Below, in pieces: positions 1 to 7,891 of a stretch of 9,824 nt of DNA. The first letter of the stretch is position 1, and every line of letters starts with the position of its first letter. The notes below the pieces were generated by a model. That model saw only the letters and a program-made list of their open reading frames with translations, did no database searches and was not told where the DNA came from. The position numbers and the translations under genes are program-made. This DNA comes from a virus (Duplodnaviria; Heunggongvirae; Uroviricota; Caudoviricetes): IMG/VR virus record IMGVR_UViG_2619619133_000002, positions 1 through 9,824 of that record. One strand, given 5' to 3'.

Positions 1-9
1 GGGTGTAAT

Positions 10-447
10 ATGTTTTATAGTCCATCTTTAAACATTTTTGTGAATCCTGCACTTAAGGATGATTACATTAATGCAAATTCATGGCCAGATGATGCTCTGG
101 CTGTCAGTGATGATGTTTATAATGAATTTGCAATCAATACGCCTCCAGATGACAAAATTCGTGTTGCAGGAAAAAATGGATTACCCACATGGGCACTAAT
201 ACCTCCACCATCGCATGAAGAACTTATTCAACAGGCAGAATCAGAAAGGCAATTATTGCTTAATCAGGCCAACGAATACATGAACAGTAAGCAATGGCCC
301 GGTAAAGCCGCTATTGGTCGTCTGAAAGGTGATGAACTGGCGCAATATAATTTGTGGCTGGATTATCTGGACGCACTGGAGCTGATCGATACTTCCGGTG
401 CGCCAGATATTGAATGGCCTACGCCTCCGGCAGTTCAGGCCAGATGA
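10..447 (+). CDS. tfa: tail fibre assembly protein (lambda Tfa / Caudo_TAP-like), alternative copy inside the invertible segment
   Basis: ATG at 10 sits 1 nt after a frame-3 TAA (6-8) that closes an upstream ORF running off the window. The C-terminus ...[26 protein letters not shown] matches the conserved Tfa C-terminal motif (compare lambda Tfa ...VDTSTAPDIEWP, from memory). It converges on and overlaps the minus-strand tfa by 29 nt. Confidence 0.8.
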   Translation: MFYSPSLNIFVNPALKDDYINANSWPDDALAVSDDVYNEFAINTPPDDKIRVAGKNGLPTWALIPPPSHEELIQQAESERQLLLNQANEYMNSKQWPGKAAIGRLKGDELAQYNLWLDYLDALELIDTSGAPDIEWPTPPAVQAR

Positions 448-1024
448 CATCCGGCGCTGTGCTGGTATCTGTTGCCGTCACCGCGTCAATGTAATCCAGC
501 ACAGCGTTAAGGCGGGTTGTTTCTGCCTGCGTCAGCTTCCGTCCGGCCTGTAATTTCAGTTGAATCAGACTGATGGAGGCCATTGCAGTATCAATCAGCG
601 ACTGGCGCTGTGCTTCTGCTGCATCTACTGCTGCGCCGTGCTGTGCCTCGGTATCTGTCACCCATTTCTCACCATTCCATTCATCGTATGGCGTTAACGG
701 GGCGATAGTGGTTGTATTTTCAGGATAATCACCCGGAGCTGTGATTTCTTTCGATTCTCCTGTTTCGGTGCTATAGACGATTTCACCGCGATGATCTGGC
801 ACATATTCCCATGAATTTAAATCTACAGAGCGACAGATTGCATAACCAGCTTTATGTGTACCTGGTGCATCCAAACAAGAACATGCCGGGATACCGACGC
901 CGACAGCGAGATATTCAGTTGATGTAGAAATATATTCACGCGTTTCACCATCATAATTATAAATGATAATGTCTCCCGTTTTTATGGCAATGAGTTCACT
1001 ATTTAATACAGCTTTATTCATCAT
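419..1024 (-). CDS. tfa: tail fibre assembly protein (lambda Tfa / Caudo_TAP-like)
   Basis: 201 aa with Tfa-like blocks ([41 protein letters not shown]). The start codon overlaps the tail-fibre stop in an ATGA arrangement, suggesting translational coupling. Confidence 0.85.
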
Positions 1025-1806
1025 GCGGCCCTCACAATATAATTAAAGGCGATGTTACGTGGACGATTTTCATTTGCTGTTGGAACAACATTTGCCGCCG
1101 AGAAGTGAACATCTTGTCGGATTTTTCGGTCATTAGCGTATGTCATAGATACGTTGATGTTATTCCGGACTGAGGTACCTCCGTAAAAAGCACCACTCAC
1201 ACTTTGAACATCAACAATTGCATTTATTTCGCTGTTTACGCGCAACTGACCAAAACCGCCAGTAATGTTTCGAATAGCATCTCCTTGCGCTGAAAGCAGA
1301 GTTCGCCCACTATCCACACCACGTTCATCATCCCAGCCACGAATAAACTCACCGCGTAAATCTGGCAATTTATTTGTCGGATAAACTTTTGCCAGTTCCG
1401 GATACTCTTCGGCAGAAAAAGGCGCACCATTGCATTTCAGCCAGCCTGTTGGCGGAGTGGCTGAAGGCCACGGAACAGGCACACCAACGGGTAATGCCGA
1501 ACCTTCTCCCAAACCAAGGTTTTCGAGAGCCGTTTTCACGGTGCCATCCGATTTGATATCGCCAAACGGATTCTTGCGGCTTAACAGCAGCGCACGAAGC
1601 GCGGTAAGCAGCTGGTCGTGTTGCGCCTTCTCCAGACTAGCACCGGATGCCTCCACCACGCTGCAAAGCTCCTCCTGCAACATGTCAAAGTAGTCATCAT
1701 CCAGATCGGTAGCAGGCGTGCCAGTCTGGGGGTTACCACGGGTAAAACCGTTTTTACCCGCGCCGAACTTATCCTTCTGCGCGGTTTTCGTGTCTATACG
1801 ATGCAT
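1021..1806 (-). CDS. stf: short side tail fibre protein with a tail-collar-like C-terminal domain; N-terminal constant part joined to the C-terminal variable part at an invertase crossover site
   Basis: ATG at 1806 is preceded by GGAG and an in-frame TAA. The C-terminal region ([23 protein letters not shown]...[22 protein letters not shown]) looks like the phage tail collar / tail fibre tip family. Codons 93-101 (ALENLGLGE) are encoded by the putative crossover site. Confidence 0.75.
1504..1529. other. putative serine-invertase (Pin/Gin/Cin/Hin-type) crossover site embedded in the tail fibre gene
   Basis: 26-bp imperfect palindrome TTCTCCCAAACC-AA-GGTTTTCGAGAG; 9 of 12 half-site positions are symmetric. 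The AAACC-AA-GGTTT core resembles hix/gix/cix sites as recalled (e.g. hixL TTCTTGAAAACCAAGGTTTTTGATAA). Confidence 0.55.
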
Positions 1807-2617
1807 GGATTACTCCGGATACCGAACCGTTGAGCATCTCGATAACTTCCCGCCGCTTGTCGTAGCACGGCCCCTCAATGTTGTACCCGGCGGTGGTGAT
1901 GGCCCACATCAGTGGCTGACGTCGCGCGCCCATCCCGGTAAGCATCGTGGTATAAAGCGCATCGGTGGCGTGCTCGTGATATTCATCCACCACGGCACAG
2001 TGGGGTGATGAACCATCACCGGGGTTACCGATCAGCGGTTCAAACCGCGCGCCATCCTCCGGACGGTTCATGTTTGAGGCGTTAACCTCAATCCCGAACG
2101 CTTCCGTCAGCATGGGTGTGCGTTTACACATCAGTCGCGCCGGGCGAAAGACTTCCCACGCCTGTTTCTCTGTCGTGGCACCGGAATACACTTCCGCGCC
2201 AAACTCGTTATCACAGGCAAAACAATACAGGGCAACACCGGCAGAGATTGCCGATTTGCCGTTCTTACGGGGGATTTCGGTATACCCCTCCCTGAAGCGG
2301 CGCAGCCGGGAGCCTTTATTGACCCAGCCAAACGCACAGCAGATCACAAAGAGCTGCCACGGTTCCAGCGTGATGGGCATCCTCTTGAATGCCCACTCCC
2401 CCTTGGTGTGTGGCAACAGCTGAATAAATTTCGCGGCCCGTTCAGCCAGGTCCTTGTCGAAGCGGTAACGAAACGACTTACTTTTTTCCGCCATCAGGTC
2501 ATCAAGATGGCGCTGGCAGGCCTGAATCACAAACTGGCAGGCCACAATCTTTCCGCGCACGACATCACGGGCATACTGATTGGCAGCATTTACGTTGGGG
2601 TAAGATTTCCGGCTCAT
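1769..2617 (-). pseudogene. terL: terminase large subunit (HK97/Terminase_1-like), truncated: ATPase domain only
   Basis: Walker A-like PRKNGKS and Walker B-like AVVDEYHE are present. Only 282 aa are encoded, against roughly 550 aa or more expected; there is no nuclease domain. The frame ends 37 nt inside the next gene. ATG overlaps the terS stop (ATGA). Confidence 0.75.
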
Positions 2618-3108
2618 GATTCGATGATTTTCAGAAACGGGTTAGTGGCTTTCTTCTGCCCCGCCAGGCCAATCAGACGCTGGCGGCTGCTGGGGTCGAG
2701 TCCGAGCATTGCCCCCGTGCTGCTCATCTCGGACTCCTGTTCTTTCTTGGCGGTCAGCTCCGGATTTTTGACCATGCCACCCATTGCACCGGTGATGGTG
2801 TTGCCCTGTCTGGCAATATTTTTCACGGCACGCCGCCAGAACTCGTAGGCCACGCACCACCGCTCAAGCACCGCGAGGTCAGTCACGCACAGCAGGCCCT
2901 GACCGCAGAGTTCTTTGGTTGTCAGTTGCCACATGATCGTGGCGAGAGGGAGATCTTCTTCAGCGAACCACTCCGGTGGCTCAACACCTTTGATGGGCGT
3001 AAAAACAGGTTCATCTTTATTCAGGGCTCGCTTGCCGGGGTTTCCGGCCAGCGCCTTGCGCGCCGTTGGCTTGGGGCGACGCCCGGACCCCCCCGCCGTT
3101 CCAGCCAT
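2614..3108 (-). CDS. terS: terminase small subunit, P27 family
   Basis: N-terminal [26 protein letters not shown] is typical of P27-family TerS. ATG at 3108 has GGAG about 11 nt upstream; the ORF track starts at an in-frame GTG at 3117. It overlaps the terL start. Confidence 0.8.
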
Positions 3109-3143
3109 ATGCGGCACTCCTGGTTAAATTTCATTTTTCGCGG

Positions 3144-3210
3144 GTATAAAAAAACGAGGGGGCGGGCAGTCCGGAAGACGTCAGGTCACAGGGATGTGCC
3201 CCGCCCCTCC
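3144..3210 (-). terminator. GC-rich imperfect palindrome followed by a T7 run on the minus strand: putative intrinsic terminator and/or cos-region element between HNH and terS
   Basis: Arms CGAGGGGGCGGGCA (3155-3168) and TGCCCCGCCCCTCC (3197-3210) pair with two bulges. The loop contains the GACGTC palindrome. The minus strand reads stem then TTTTTTTA. Confidence 0.45.
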
Positions 3211-3233
3211 CCTCAGACAGTTGAGAGTTATTA

Positions 3234-3584
3234 TCACTTTAACCGTTCACGGACCGTCTTCGCCTTATGACACGGCCAACACAGACTCTGCAGATTACAG
3301 TCGGCATCAGTGCCGCCATGCGCTTTAGGGATGATGTGGTCAACGGTTTTCGCCTCACGCACCACACCGGCACGCAGACATAACTGACATAAACCTTTGT
3401 CACGCTTCAGCACACGCGCGCGGATAGCGTCCCACTTCGAACCATAACCGCGCTGATGACGGGACTGACCTGGCTTGTATTGCTTCCAGCCTTCGCTTTT
3501 GTGGCTTTCGCAGTAGCCTGACGGGTCTGTGGTTGTAGAGCGGCAGCCGCGAACACGGCAGGCTTTTGGGGTTCGTGGTGGCAT
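3234..3584 (-). CDS. phage HNH endonuclease (terminase-associated)
   Basis: 116 aa with CxxC...H...N...H...CxxCH signature (CRVRGC, CESH, DHIIPKAHGG, CWPCH). Position immediately upstream of terS is typical of HK97-like packaging modules. ATG has GGAG upstream. Confidence 0.85.
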   Translation of the reverse strand: MPPRTPKACRVRGCRSTTTDPSGYCESHKSEGWKQYKPGQSRHQRGYGSKWDAIRARVLKRDKGLCQLCLRAGVVREAKTVDHIIPKAHGGTDADCNLQSLCWPCHKAKTVRERLK

Positions 3585-3593
3585 TGGTAAGCT

Positions 3594-3628
3594 CCAATAA
3601 AAAAGCCACCATCGATTGCTAGTGGCTT
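3594..3628 (-). terminator. putative Rho-independent terminator downstream of the moron ORF
   Basis: 7-bp stem AAGCCAC / GTGGCTT (3603-3609 and 3622-3628) with a 12-nt loop, followed on the minus strand by TTTTTTATT. Confidence 0.45.
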
Positions 3629-3654
3629 AGCATCTACTAATGTGAAGAGTAGGT

Positions 3655-4413
3655 TTATTTTTTCTTCTTATTTAACTTATCTAAATTGACGGGATCTTTC
3701 CCTGTGGCAGCTAAACACCAAAAAGAATAACTCTTTTGCATGACATAGGTTCTAATTCTCTCTAATGTTTCATTATATTTTTTCTCAACAACCTGTATCG
3801 CATGTTCAAATAAATTAATCATATCAACATGCTCGTCCTCGACACCAATCATGCTCAGTTGTTTTCTATCTGTCACTGCTTGATAAAATGTTTTCCCATT
3901 TTTCCTTATTAGTAACAATGAAGTTTCTGCTGACTCATAGTCTTGGTTGCCGCTATGTGCTGCAAAATTATGCCTGTAGTTAATAATACAGTCATGCAAC
4001 CCAAAATATTCAGAATCAAGCCAATCACGCTCCATCTTTAACTTTCTCCCTTTAGCTTCAGAGAAAGCTTTACCATAAAACGTTAGGCTTGCCACAAATA
4101 ACGCTCTAATTTCACTTGATAAATCTAGATCAAGTATATTCCCGTATAACTTGCCATCTGTCCTTAATTCGTTTCTCCCTGCCAGTTCATTAGCTATTTG
4201 GTACCACTCTTTAGCACTTTTTAAGTCCCTATGAATTAGTGACAGTGAAGATGCTCTATCGGCAATACGCCCACTCAATTTTATGCGATCTACAATTTCA
4301 TTATTGAATGTATAAACCGCTTTAAATTCCCCCGTTTCGGAATCAATATAATATTCAACATCTAACCCTTCATATGATTCACACCCGGGACCTTCTAATT
4401 TTTTTCTTTTCAT
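3655..4413 (-). CDS. hypothetical protein in an AT-rich moron; contains an Rx5H motif (possible HEPN-like RNase)
   Basis: Long ORF in a sharply AT-rich island between Rz and HNH. ATG at 4413 is used here; the ORF track starts at an in-frame TTG at 4437. Motif NYRHNFAAH lies at 3955-3975. No family recognised by eye. Confidence 0.55.
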   Translation of the reverse strand: MKRKKLEGPGCESYEGLDVEYYIDSETGEFKAVYTFNNEIVDRIKLSGRIADRASSLSLIHRDLKSAKEWYQIANELAGRNELRTDGKLYGNILDLDLSSEIRALFVASLTFYGKAFSEAKGRKLKMERDWLDSEYFGLHDCIINYRHNFAAHSGNQDYESAETSLLLIRKNGKTFYQAVTDRKQLSMIGVEDEHVDMINLFEHAIQVVEKKYNETLERIRTYVMQKSYSFWCLAATGKDPVNLDKLNKKKK

Positions 4414-4494
4414 ATAGAATATCCATATACGTTTCAATTCTCAGTCAGCATAGTAGAAAAAAAAGATGTCCAGATCCATACATCGAAAGCAATT

Positions 4495-4959
4495 TTAGTT
4501 TTCACACTGACTAGAGATATAGTCCTGCAATGCTCTTATCTGTTTATAACTGATTTCAATTCTCTCTCTGAGGGTGAAATAATCCCGTTGAGCGGTGTCA
4601 GTAAGTCGGGGGGCGGTAGCATCATCCAGGCTGGTGGTAATGGTCGTTGATTGCACTCTCGGGCAACTAGCGGCGAGGAACAGCCGCTTAGTGCCAACAG
4701 CAACATCACGCTGAAGCTGTTCAATAGTTGCTTTAGCATTTGCAAGTTCTCCGGTGTATTTCGCATCGAGCGCAGAAACATCACGCTGGCGCTGCTGCAT
4801 CTCAGTAATGGTGGCGTTCGCCTGGCTGAGTTTTTCCTTCGCTTTATCGCGCTGTTCTTTGTAGGCGATGGCGTTATCACGATAATGATTAACAGCCCAT
4901 GATAGGCAGACGATGGTGCAGATAACCAGAGAGGACAGAATCGCAGTTACTCTACTCAT
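4495..4959 (-). CDS. Rz: i-spanin Rz
   Basis: [31 protein letters not shown]... is near-identical in pattern to lambda Rz as recalled. ATG at 4959 overlaps the end of R by 8 nt (ATGAGTAG). The ORF track's longer form begins at a TTG inside R. Confidence 0.85.
4536..4739 (-). CDS. Rz1: o-spanin Rz1 lipoprotein, embedded in the +1 frame of Rz
   Basis: [20 protein letters not shown] has a signal peptide and lipobox (LSGC). The proline-rich mature part [27 protein letters not shown] resembles lambda Rz1. Confidence 0.75.
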
Positions 4960-5434
4960 ATAGCTGAATTTCTCTGACCGTTCCGCCCGATTCTTTGAAT
5001 TTTTCAATCAGGCTGTCAACCTTATGTTCGAACTGACCATAACCAGCGCCCGGCAATGACGCCCAGATATTGCTGCAACGATCAATAGCCTGACGGATAT
5101 CGCCGCGATCAATCATCGGTAAAGCACCACGCTCTTTAATCTGCTGCAATGCCACAGCATCCTGGCTTTTTGGAGAGAAGTCTTTCAGCCCAAGCTGCTT
5201 ACGGTAAGCATCCCACCAGCGTGAAAGAAGCTGATAACGTCCTGCGGCTGTTGATTTAAGTTTCGGGTTTAGCGTGACAAGTTTGCGAGGGTGATCGGAG
5301 TAATCAGTGAACAGTTCACCTCCGACAATAACGTCATAACCGTGGTTACGTGTCGGTTGTCGCCCGTTATCCGTTCCTTCTGACCATGCCACCATATCGA
5401 GGAAAGCTTTACGCTGGGAATTTAGTACCTGCAT
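4952..5434 (-). CDS. R: endolysin, lambda R-type lytic transglycosylase
   Basis: [47 protein letters not shown]... matches lambda R as recalled along its whole length (160 aa). Confidence 0.9.
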
Positions 5435-5437
5435 AAA

Positions 5438-5764
5438 TTACTCCTTAGAGCCACCAAACTTATTACCGATTACTCTCATTGCAGCCCCACGAATAGCATC
5501 GACCCCGATCAGCCCAACGCCGCCACCAATGGCAACAGAAAGAGATTTAGGCCATCCGACATACTCAAGAGCGGATGCAAAAGTCAGCGTCAGAGCACCA
5601 CAGAGCAAAATCTCGAGCGTTTTTCGTTTCCAGCCACCACCACCGCCAAAATAGGCAATGCGCAAGCCAGCCATAACGATCGACATAATCACTGCGCCCA
5701 GCGGTGTGTCTCCACGCCACCAGCTCTGGACCAACTCCAGCCAGGTATTTGGGTTATGAGGCAT
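5438..5764 (-). CDS. S: holin, lambda S-like class I (three predicted TM segments)
   Basis: 108 aa with three hydrophobic segments and a G-rich loop (AYFGGGGGWKRKTL), comparable to the lambda/P22 S holin layout. Stop lies 3 nt from the R start. Confidence 0.8.
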   Translation of the reverse strand: MPHNPNTWLELVQSWWRGDTPLGAVIMSIVMAGLRIAYFGGGGGWKRKTLEILLCGALTLTFASALEYVGWPKSLSVAIGGGVGLIGVDAIRGAAMRVIGNKFGGSKE

Positions 5765-5902
5765 TTGTAGTTATCTCTCACCTCGCTGATACAGCAGGTG
5801 CAAATTGAGGGAACATCATGTACCGCAAATCAGAAGCGGAAACATCAAAGAAGCCGAACCGATGGAGAACTGCGGAATAGGCCAGGACCAACGAATCCCC
5901 AG

Positions 5903-5938
5903 CCACAGAAACGACAAAACCCGCTCGACGGCGGGTTT
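5903..5938 (-). terminator. putative Rho-independent terminator upstream of S (candidate tR'-like late terminator)
   Basis: Perfect 8-bp stem AAACCCGC / GCGGGTTT (5917-5924 and 5931-5938) with a 6-nt loop; the minus strand continues TTTTGTCGTTTCTG. Confidence 0.45.
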
Positions 5939-6015
5939 AAGCTGTGTGGCGAAGTAACCACTCTTAACAGATTACAATGTTTTTTGCGGACCGCGCTAAT
6001 GATTTCCTCTTTTTT

Positions 6016-6060: not shown

Positions 6061-7002
6061 ATGAGTACAGAAAATAAGAATAAAACCAGGCGAGTGAGAG
6101 TTGGTTTTTTCACTGGTAATGGAAGCAAAAAAGATGGCACATCTGCTGCAAAACTAGCCTTTGAGCAAATGACCACAGCAGATACTGTAACTTTTCCAAT
6201 AACTTACACAACAGACACCCCAAATCGAGGGTTAAAGTTAGTTATTCTTCAAAAAGATACCACACTGCAATGTTACTTTGGTTACGTATCGTGGAGAAGG
6301 GAATGCCTACTACCGTTCATCGAGGATGCTACAGGTAGTGAGAGAACAATTCCTTTAAATGATAAAGATTCTGTAGTTGAAAGAACATATTTTATCTATT
6401 ACTACGAAACGGACTTATTAGCTATGACCCTCAACCATATAGGGCCCAAAGTAAATGATCTGGCATTCATTTTGTATAACAAAACTGATTTAAAAAGCGT
6501 CACTTTTGAAGCCATTTGGAAACAAGAGAGCATGAAGGAACTGCTTGAGGACGGAAATATCCTACGTAGTTTCGATCTTATAGTTGCTGCTCCAAGAAAC
6601 TTTAACAAAGCTAATTATAAGATTAAAAACCCTTTAGCTAATGAAATTATTGACATGGTTGTTGGTATGGGCGGGTCGCATCTAAGATTAAATATGCGAG
6701 GTCGGATTCGCCCGAAAAAACAAGGGTTTAACTATCTAAAAACTTCTGTCACCGATGCTATTAAGGAACTACTTGAACTTTTTCCAAAAGGTTCTGGAGG
6801 TCTAAAAATTAAAAAAATTGATGTAACAGAGCCATCCAATAGAACGCCCAAAAGTCTACTTGACCAAGTATTGGTCAGTACAAAGACAATCATTGTCAAA
6901 AGCGGTTATCCATCCGATTCTGATATCAGAACGGCGATGATATCTGCTAAAATTGATAACGCGAACTATCTTGCACAGTATGAGCTCGCTAGCAGAGACT
7001 AA
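6061..7002 (+). CDS. hypothetical protein, 313 aa, soluble; first gene of the AT-rich cargo operon
   Basis: Long ORF in an AT-rich island, on the opposite strand to all flanking phage genes. ATG is preceded by an in-frame TAA. No motif or family recognised by eye. Confidence 0.6.
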   Translation: MSTENKNKTRRVRVGFFTGNGSKKDGTSAAKLAFEQMTTADTVTFPITYTTDTPNRGLKLVILQKDTTLQCYFGYVSWRRECLLPFIEDATGSERTIPLNDKDSVVERTYFIYYYETDLLAMTLNHIGPKVNDLAFILYNKTDLKSVTFEAIWKQESMKELLEDGNILRSFDLIVAAPRNFNKANYKIKNPLANEIIDMVVGMGGSHLRLNMRGRIRPKKQGFNYLKTSVTDAIKELLELFPKGSGGLKIKKIDVTEPSNRTPKSLLDQVLVSTKTIIVKSGYPSDSDIRTAMISAKIDNANYLAQYELASRD

Positions 7003-7023
7003 TAACCAAGCATGGAGGACACA

Positions 7024-7473
7024 ATGAGAGAATTAGCCACTTTTCTCTGGAAATGCGTCCTCTGGATTCTGTTGACCTATGCAGCGACAAAACTGTTTAA
7101 ACCGATGAAGCATGCTGACGTACTCACAACAGCGGGGGTGCTCTCGACTATATCAGGCATCCTGTTTGGTTTTGTTCTGGCTGCAATATCTATATTTAGT
7201 AGTGCAAACAGCGATAAGGAAGGAGCAATTAATGCCCTTAAGCAAAACAACGTGTTACCAACTCTGGTAAATAGATTACTTTCAACAGGGTTAACTCTCA
7301 TCGTCGCATGTATATTTCCATTGATAGCGATGTTTCTACCTGATGATGTTATTGTTGCGGGCAAACCTATTGATTTCCTATTCATACTGTTAGGCTTATC
7401 CTCCCTTATAATTTCGCTATATACCTTCGGAAGGTGTTGGTTAGTGTTACGAAAAATCTTCCCCCACTTGTGA
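7024..7473 (+). CDS. small integral membrane protein, 3-4 predicted TM helices; second gene of the cargo operon
   Basis: ATG at 7024 has a perfect GGAGGA 6 nt upstream; the ORF track starts at ATG 7012. Four hydrophobic stretches (FLWKCVLWILLTYAA, GVLSTISGILFGFVLAAISIF, LLSTGLTLIVACIFPLIAMFL, IDFLFILLGLSSLIISLYTF). Starts 21 nt after the upstream gene. Confidence 0.6.
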   Translation: MRELATFLWKCVLWILLTYAATKLFKPMKHADVLTTAGVLSTISGILFGFVLAAISIFSSANSDKEGAINALKQNNVLPTLVNRLLSTGLTLIVACIFPLIAMFLPDDVIVAGKPIDFLFILLGLSSLIISLYTFGRCWLVLRKIFPHL

Positions 7474-7508: not shown

Positions 7509-7874
7509 CTAAGCGTCCATTTCAAGGTTAACATCCAACATTGAAAGGCAACCATCAATAAATCCTTCGGCTAGTTGTATTTCTATGCGTACCAATTTTT
7601 CATCCTTTCCACGCACCTTTGCAATCTTACGCTTGGATATTCTGTATAAATAATGTGCCACAAGCAGCGAGTGCTCATCTGGCTTTTTTTGCTTTAGACG
7701 AGCAAGACAACCTTCAATAATTAATGCATCACTATCTGAACAAGCCTGACGTGTTTTGCTTGTGTAGGGAAGAAGCCCCTTAAACCCAGCAGCTATAGGC
7801 GAATAGTCTACTCCAGAACTATCACTCGCCGCCCATGCTCCCCAACGCTCCAGAACCATCTGAATATCACGCAT
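7509..7874 (-). CDS. Q: late antiterminator Q (phage 82 / QuuD-type)
   Basis: MRDIQMVLERWGAWAA... matches the N-terminus of E. coli prophage QuuD-family Q proteins as recalled. ATG at 7874 has GGAG upstream; the ORF track begins one codon earlier at TTG. Confidence 0.85.
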   Translation of the reverse strand: MRDIQMVLERWGAWAASDSSGVDYSPIAAGFKGLLPYTSKTRQACSDSDALIIEGCLARLKQKKPDEHSLLVAHYLYRISKRKIAKVRGKDEKLVRIEIQLAEGFIDGCLSMLDVNLEMDA

Positions 7875-7891
7875 CAACTTTCTCCACCAAA

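Follow-up and report, generated by a model that had tools for sequence, protein, structure and literature searches.

A probable e14-type P segment retained in a lambdoid prophage that is too deleted for virion production

Introduction

At the left end of a prophage contig two tail fibre assembly (tfa) genes face each other, and the neighbouring tail fibre gene contains a 26-bp palindrome. This arrangement raises the question whether the locus is part of an invertible segment that exchanges the C-terminus of the fibre, and what such a segment can still mean in the prophage that carries it. The whole stretch of DNA that was analysed, in the following called the window, comprises 9824 bp and corresponds to the entire draft contig JNMH01000042.1 (locus L016, assembly GCA_000700245.1) in reverse-complemented form; the contig was identified by an exact-protein look-up of the fibre. 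A Logan contig of SRR1186469, the probable read set of this assembly, agrees with the window except for 1 mismatch in 2292 bp. All close matches of the window are from Escherichia coli, and the window covers the late region of a lambdoid prophage, which reads along the minus strand (Table 1). As position 1 is the physical end of the draft contig, sequence further to the left is unreadable in the source assembly.

An invertible segment of this kind, the P segment of e14 with its invertase PinE, was described for E. coli K-12 (Plasterk & van de Putte 1985, as cited in PMC4272514 and PMC12529663). The original prediction for the window, made from its letters alone, was a fibre segment of the Mu G, P1 C or e14 P type whose partner site and Pin-family gene should be located to the left of position 1.

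Table 1. Features of the left end of the window and gene content of the prophage remnant
Feature	Position	Strand	Details
End of fibre C-terminus B (..GV*, gggtgtaa)	1-8	+	two last full codons and stop; remainder past the contig end
Tail fibre assembly gene, 145 aa	10-447	+	Caudo_TAP, E 1.2e-32
Tail fibre assembly gene, TfaE-like, 201 aa (200 aa from the second ATG at 1021)	419-1024	-	Caudo_TAP, E 3.5e-32
Tail fibre gene, 261 aa	1021-1806	-	Pfam Collar
Variable C-terminal part A of the fibre, codons 102-261	1021-1503	-	Collar, E 1.2e-15, residues 108-155; within the predicted invertible segment
Pin crossover site, 26 bp, fibre-side	1504-1529	.	26/26 identical to the K-12 e14 site
Core AA of the crossover site	1516-1517		inner half-site TTCTCCCAAACC; outer half-site GGTTTTCGAGAG
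Constant N-terminal part of the fibre, codons 1-92	1530-1806	-	outside the predicted invertible segment
Remnant of the ymfQ 3' end	1807-1821	-	three last codons and stop, with the GGAG ribosome-binding site of the fibre gene
Truncated large terminase gene	1769-2617	-	ATPase domain alone; Pfam TerL_ATPase
Small terminase gene	2614-3117	-	
HNH endonuclease gene	3234-3584	-	
Lysis cassette (Rz, lysozyme, holin)	4495-5764	-	
Antiterminator Q gene	7509-7877	-	
DUF968 gene, KilA-N gene			after antiterminator Q in the listed order

A characterised crossover site inside the tail fibre gene

The sequence TTCTCCCAAACCAAGGTTTTCGAGAG occurs only once in the window, and in 200 shuffles no match with three or fewer mismatches was obtained. 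Its two 12-bp halves, which match at 9 of 12 positions, form an imperfect dyad about the central AA. Within the fibre ORF, which runs from 1806 to 1021, the site is in frame and comprises codons 93-101 (ALENLGLGE), exactly where a hix/gix-like site had been proposed. At 18 of the 26 positions it matches what we take to be the sequence of gixL. The agreement with the e14 P-segment site inside stfP of strain K-12 is complete (26/26). Positions 1502-1517 of the window read CCTTCTCCCAAACCAA and match the published inverted repeat of e14; Kirigo et al. (PMC12529663) give CCTTCTCCCAAACCAA as the inverted repeat of the 1797-bp e14 P segment.

The original prediction placed the joint between a constant and a variable part of the fibre at this site. 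The similarity to the P2-like locus L002 and the recombinant joint of the contig L011 (see below) both break at 1504-1529. A search for additional crossover sites, as in a multi-inversion system, detected none in the 9.8-kb window besides this one.

Two convergent tfa genes and two fibre C-termini

At their 3' ends the tfa genes, which face each other, share 29 nt (419-447). Both gene products were recognized by the Caudo_TAP model (PF02413) with scores of 113.2 and 111.8 bits at a Pfam gathering cut-off of 22.1, and they are just 34% identical over their last 80 residues, which identifies them as different genes, as the original prediction had stated. The TfaE-like gene additionally overlaps the stop codon of the fibre gene (ATGA). 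In NCBIfam no family was found for the fibre or the Tfa proteins.

Comparison with relatives assigned the first bases of the window. Bases 1-8 are the end of a 128-aa ORF present in L001 and L002, which belongs to Pfam Gp53-like_C (E 1.3e-12), and the suggestion that an alternative fibre C-terminus ends at the window edge was thereby borne out. In the window orientation this ORF, which contains C-terminus B, begins at the conserved pin-side start MPFARYFFIFINVGLGE. The sequence of C-terminus A is also found beside pin in flipped relatives, and L011 and L019 have C-terminus B on the same constant fibre part. The reading frame is kept through the site in both states, and the constant part together with B forms an intact ORF of 212 aa (L011, L019). 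C-terminus A, which is currently expressed, has the TfaE-like protein of 200/201 aa as its cognate chaperone, and the 145-aa Tfa, silent in the window orientation, is the chaperone cognate to C-terminus B.

The partner site and the invertase gene in close relatives

No recombinase gene was detected within the 9.8-kb window, neither among the ORFs nor by Pfam. The region to the left of position 1 can be read in relatives. Locus L001, from the complete E. coli genome of strain A29, is 98.8% identical over window positions 1-1821, and L002, from the complete E. coli genome of strain PCP06021, is 99.5% identical over positions 1-1528. In both genomes a 387-bp alternative fibre C-terminus, annotated as gp53-like, is located directly to the left of the position equivalent to window position 1. 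It is followed by the partner site TTCTCCCAAACCAACGTTTATGAAAA, which is inverted, on the opposite strand, and occupies window-equivalent positions -353 to -328 (L001 5647-5672). The inner half-site and AA core of the partner site are those of the window site (L001, L002, L012, L019 and K-12), and the window-type site and the partner site form a 19-nt inverted repeat of 95% complementarity with 1831 nt between the arms.

Beyond the partner site, at about window-equivalent positions -962 to -408 and on the opposite strand to the 387-bp ORF, L001 and L002 carry a pinE/serine recombinase gene. Pin of L001 shares 96% identity with K-12 PinE, and its match to the Gin crystal-structure sequences 3uj3/4m6f has an E value of 7e-94; NCBIfam gave serine-recombinase matches to Pin below threshold only. 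When ten further places encoding the exact 145-aa Tfa were inspected, all ten had a Resolvase+HTH_7 gene beside the segment, with seven segments in the window orientation and three flipped. These ten places span e14/SfV-like tail modules (Mu Gp48/YmfQ) as well as P2-like ones (gpI, gpH-type fibre).

The predicted partner site and Pin-family gene are therefore present in every close relative, at the place that in the source assembly is cut off by the contig end. By comparison with these relatives, the source strain would have its partner site about 0.33 kb, and its pin gene 0.4-1.0 kb, past the contig end on the left. When IMG/VR was scanned for both pin-side joints, 38 contigs were obtained, with the half-site joined to A in 25 and to B in 13; none of them came from the genome of L011 (IMG taxon 2609459803).

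Two of the relatives contain damaged segments: L018 has IS66 inserted, and in L064 the insertion comprises 491 aa.

Both orientations of the segment

A scan of IMG/VR with 40 nt across the junction of the terminase/fibre deletion identified a single contig, L011. The same 40-nt scan of genome contigs found nothing, look-ups of the truncated TerL and of TerS as exact proteins gave no match, a look-up of a 313-aa moron protein returned intact prophages only, and that of the 145-aa Tfa gave only long contigs of other strains. Positions 461-4933 of L011 are 99.35% identical to window positions 1504-5976 (about 4.5 kb). L011 1-132 and window 1-132 are exact reverse complements of each other, with the L011 sequence running on into the B ORF, and L011 1-479 corresponds to the reverse complement of L001 5654-6132 with 99.6% identity. 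In this contig the 26-bp site links the constant fibre part to C-terminus B, and the gene of the 145-aa Tfa comes next. By these alignments L011 is a sister prophage that shares the deletion and carries the segment flipped, joined within the site. Homologous exchange with a different prophage could in principle also have produced the orientation of L011 without site-specific inversion, but the joint falls exactly in the crossover site.

Further loci show both states. Between the two sites, L019 (strain FDAARGOS_1373) is the full mirror image of L001. With a query coverage of at least 80%, the constant part was joined to A in 39 complete E. coli genomes and to B in 24, and across all loci retrieved each variable start was seen on both sides. 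For e14 of K-12, inversion of the segment in clonal cultures was shown by sequencing and PCR (PMC4272514), and inversion was also shown by qPCR (PMC12529663).

In the source assembly the contig runs straight through the fibre-side site, which indicates that one orientation dominated. The 145-aa Tfa was located solely on contigs shorter than 2 kb in 503 of 1202 index blocks, compared with 300 of 4340 for the moron protein. This excess of short contigs is suggestive of a segment of about 1.9 kb that often assembles alone.

The deletion in the host prophage

A comparison of the window with L001 and L008 located the deletion junction at 1821/1822, with a microhomology of 2 nt; alignment H5 stops at window position 1821. 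Relative to the intact 577-aa TerL of L008, the large terminase is cut after about residue 265. The TerL remnant is joined to the tail of ymfQ (three sense codons and the stop) and runs out of frame into the start of the fibre gene. The fibre gene retains its GGAG ribosome-binding site and in the late operon now comes after what is left of the terminase gene. No head, tail or baseplate gene remains, and judged from this junction the window represents a lambdoid/SfV-like prophage without any gene between about codon 265 of terL and the end of ymfQ.

This prophage is too deleted for the production of virions. With no virion genes left, a host-range role of the segment in the window is moot, and of the host-range switch in the original prediction only the ancestry holds: the locus is by descent an e14-type switch, but host range is not its present function. 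The occurrence of the same deletion in both orientations, in the window and in L011, argues that flipping went on after the deletion, and suggests that the switch may keep working after the death of the phage.

Proposed explanation and alternatives

Taken together, the identity of the site with that of e14, the collinear arrangement and the relatives in both orientations make it very probable that window positions 1-1529 make up most of an e14-type P segment, about 1.86 kb long, which would be flipped by a Pin serine invertase between inverted 26-bp sites, and that this segment is a relic that can still be flipped and not a working host-range device. Wherever the original prediction was open to testing, the outcome agreed with it. 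The e14 P segment system as such has already been described; to judge from the comparisons, the window carries other alleles of its variable parts.

The 92 constant codons of the fibre lie outside the segment. The segment itself holds two alternative C-termini, each followed by its own tfa gene, in tail-to-tail arrangement. In the window orientation the constant part is continued by the Collar-domain C-terminus A and then by the gene of the TfaE-like chaperone; after inversion it would be in frame with the Gp53-like C-terminus B, followed by the gene of the 145-aa Tfa. On the Hin/Gin paradigm, Pin dimers would bind to both sites and undergo synapsis on a Fis-bound enhancer, both strands would be cut at the central AA/TT, and the DNA would be religated after a rotation by 180 degrees. 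In systems of this type the enhancer has two Fis sites and is usually located in the 5' part of the invertase gene. Pin of L001 contains the QxxRL Fis-contact motif of the DNA-binding domain, here as QAGRL.

Inversion could instead have been lost in the source strain, with the window containing a frozen descendant of the e14 P segment whose partner site and/or pin were deleted. We regard this as unlikely. Loss of the switch would suit a prophage that has lost roughly all of its head and tail genes, a contig that stops at position 1 with the left part of the segment unseen in the source strain, and the damaged state of the segments in L018 (IS66) and L064 (491-aa insertion); but bases 1-8 match the end of B, so that the segment reaches at least to the contig edge, and the sister contig L011 with the same junction in the opposite orientation implies flipping after the deletion. 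In addition, the invertase was kept in all ten relatives with the same Tfa. A loss of pin alone would also not necessarily stop inversion, because Pin-family enzymes of other prophages can act in trans, as PinQ does on e14 (PMC12529663), although the partner site would still be required.

The switch could also have been kept by domestication, in which the product of one orientation, either the fibre or the pin-side short ORF with its fibre C-terminus, would benefit the host, e.g. by masking outer-membrane receptors against other phages. We consider this explanation improbable. The fibre gene, both tfa genes and the site are intact amid a massive deletion, but this intactness may just reflect that the deletion is recent. 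The same deletion lineage exists in both orientations, and the conserved pin-side start MPFARYFFIFINVGLGE opens a 128-aa ORF with C-terminus B that would make a product analogous to StfE2. Inversion of the K-12 e14 segment is reported to block adsorption of T2 (StfE2, PMC12529663); the published claim is, however, limited to one strain and one phage, and the window has variable C-termini different from the K-12 ones (37% identity between B and the C-terminus of StfP). A switch that is retained and still flipping in a virion-less lineage for the benefit of the host, for instance as a StfE2-like receptor-masking defence with a different pair of fibre tips (Collar-type and Gp53-like), is a speculative proposal to which we give little weight. 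If it were true, defective prophages would contain a family of allelic, phase-variable anti-phage "fibre decoys".

A chance juxtaposition of two unrelated prophage tail remnants around a fortuitous palindrome is extremely improbable and was rejected, because mirror-image relatives exist (L011 and L019 versus L001), the site is identical at 26 of 26 positions to a characterised crossover site for which no chance match is expected, and the whole arrangement including the 29-nt overlap is collinear with e14, even though Tfa and fibre fragments are frequent repeats in E. coli (7741 places in 3371 genomes).

On the preferred reading, that of an e14-type P segment which can still be flipped, the region should be annotated as an e14-family P segment whose orientation is the reverse of that in the MG1655 reference, and the contig end as an assembly break within the P segment. 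One invertible cassette, identical Tfa included, is common to e14/SfV-like and P2-like prophages, which points to an exchange of modules at the crossover site. That two sister prophages share one deletion but differ in orientation bears on recent claims that relic switches serve phage defence. Beyond the correct annotation the significance of the locus is small.

Comparison with known systems

The closest known system is the P segment of e14. In the e14 region of K-12 MG1655 (L020) the order is ymfQ, stfP, tfaP, the convergent tfaE and stfE', and pinE. As in the window, ymfQ is located upstream of the fibre gene, where the window keeps the ymfQ remnant, and the overlap of tfaP and tfaE amounts to the same 29 nt. 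StfP is 95% identical to residues 1-105 of the window fibre and TfaE is 90.5% identical to the 200-aa Tfa. The similarity is lower for the remaining parts: StfE is 59% identical to fibre residues 96-261 (C-terminus A), TfaP is 50% identical to the 145-aa Tfa, and the C-terminus of StfP shares 37% identity with the Gp53-like C-terminus B. The pin-side site of e14 is identical to that of the relatives of the window, and the host prophage is defective in both cases. In contrast to the window, which has a StfE-type C-terminus on the constant StfP N-terminus, the MG1655 reference contains the segment in the opposite orientation. The spacing between the site centres is 1857 bp in L001 and 1827 bp in e14 (L020), which is about 30 bp longer in L001. 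The deletion of the window, with terL fused directly to the end of ymfQ, is unlike e14, and relatives such as L001 adjoin ssrA, whereas e14 is located in icd.

The same cassette with both tfa genes, both C-termini and an adjacent recombinase gene is found in P2-like E. coli prophages (e.g. NZ_CM129877, L002). In these prophages a long P2 gpH-type fibre (514-519 aa) supplies the constant part, and the similarity to the window ends at the crossover site, whose outer half-site has 3 differences; the invertase is a 188-aa variant.

The G segment of Mu with Gin and the C segment of P1 with Cin follow the same logic, with a constant N-terminus outside and two C-termini with their chaperone genes inverted inside. 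As in the e14-type segment, the Mu and P1 systems use 26-bp sites and an adjacent serine invertase gene, but their fibre, tfa, phage backbone and site sequences are unlike those of the window. Hin/hix of Salmonella is a DNA invertase system that depends on Fis and an enhancer and has a 26-bp site architecture (PMC3798978). The Pin system shares this enzyme subclass and site architecture, but Hin flips a promoter, whereas a Pin-type segment switches a fusion of coding sequences.

Exchange of the invertible cassette at the crossover site

The look-up of the exact 145-aa tail-fibre-assembly protein (Tfa) revealed that the identical cassette is present in two groups of prophages. In P2-like prophages (L002 from strain PCP06021, L059, L062-L064 and L068) the invertible cassette is joined to a fibre of the P2 gpH type, whereas in e14/SfV-like prophages (L001 from strain A29, L060, L061 and L065-L067) it is joined to a short fibre of the StfP type. 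The cassette shows 99.5% DNA identity as far as the crossover site. Since the similarity stops at this 26-bp site, the site also marks the edge of a module that passes between the two kinds of phage.

A further group of prophages (L012-L015) encodes the identical 261-aa fibre, but a third cassette replaces the Gp53-like alternative C-terminus (B) and its 145-aa Tfa. The 163-aa C-terminus of this cassette gave no Pfam match. The presence of a different cassette beside an unchanged fibre gene indicates that the silent half of the segment is exchanged independently of the expressed half.

Coordinates of the features analyzed (window, unless a locus is named)
Feature	Coordinates	Strand	Remarks
Contig ends	position 1; 132; 692		window; start of L011 (reverse complement); end of L017
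Deletion junction	1821/1822		TerL' 1769-2617, ymfQ remnant 1807-1821
252-aa ORF	3655-4413	-	between HNH endonuclease and Rz, low GC (35-37%)
313-aa protein gene	6061-7002	+	first gene of cassette
153-aa hydrophobic protein gene	7012-7473	+	second gene of cassette
Pin-side short ORF	L001 5622-6008; L019 2450-2983; K-12 L020 6120-6656
Third cassette	L012-L015 7360-8297		163-aa C-terminus and 147-aa Tfa
LEM-3-like GIY-YIG nuclease and EcoRII-type pair	L001 1124-4977; L012 8942-12786

Deletion of the structural genes and contig ends

An internal deletion fused terL at about codon 265 directly to the final four codons of ymfQ (three sense codons and the stop), with a 2-nt microhomology (TA) at the junction. 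All head, tail and baseplate genes were lost through this deletion. The identical junction was also found in the IMG/VR sister contig L011 and in the Logan contig L017 (SRR1186469). The short-read assemblies that gave the window, L011 and L017 are independent of one another, and in each of the three the contig from this prophage lineage ends within the invertible segment. Because these ends lie at different places and none of them at the crossover site, the breaks suggest repeats common to other prophages (the conserved 3' ends of tfa) rather than heterogeneity of orientation.

Insertions in the late region

The two-gene cassette at 6061-7473 has a low GC content (36-41%) and is located between antiterminator Q and the holin gene, oriented against the late operon; this is a typical moron position. 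Neither protein had a significant Pfam match (DUF4064 was only sub-threshold for the 153-aa protein) or a PADLOC match. More than 4000 index blocks contain the exact sequence of the 313-aa protein. In all eight places among the matches listed, its gene adjoins Q and is followed by an ORF of about 150 aa. The two genes may constitute an undescribed defence or exclusion cassette. The 252-aa ORF, for which Pfam and PADLOC searches gave no match, is a further moron-like insertion in the late operon; L007 and L009 contain a 252-aa gene at the equivalent position.

Comparison with e14 of K-12 and other prophages

K-12 e14 and strain LR-03 (H2) each carry a deletion of the terL-ymfQ region other than that of the window. 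In the e14-like relatives that are integrated beside ssrA (L001 and L012), the genes after pin encode a LEM-3-like GIY-YIG nuclease and the two members of an EcoRII-type restriction-modification pair, a Dcm-like methyltransferase and the EcoRII endonuclease; at the equivalent position K-12 e14 contains mcrA. The pin-side crossover site is enclosed by a short conserved ORF start, MPFARYFFIFINVGLGE, and therefore the "silent" C-terminus always makes an additional, shorter ORF, of 128 aa when it is B and of 177 aa when it is the Collar-type C-terminus A. The analogue of this ORF in K-12 is StfE/StfE2, for which a block of T2 adsorption was claimed in a 2025 paper (PMC12529663).
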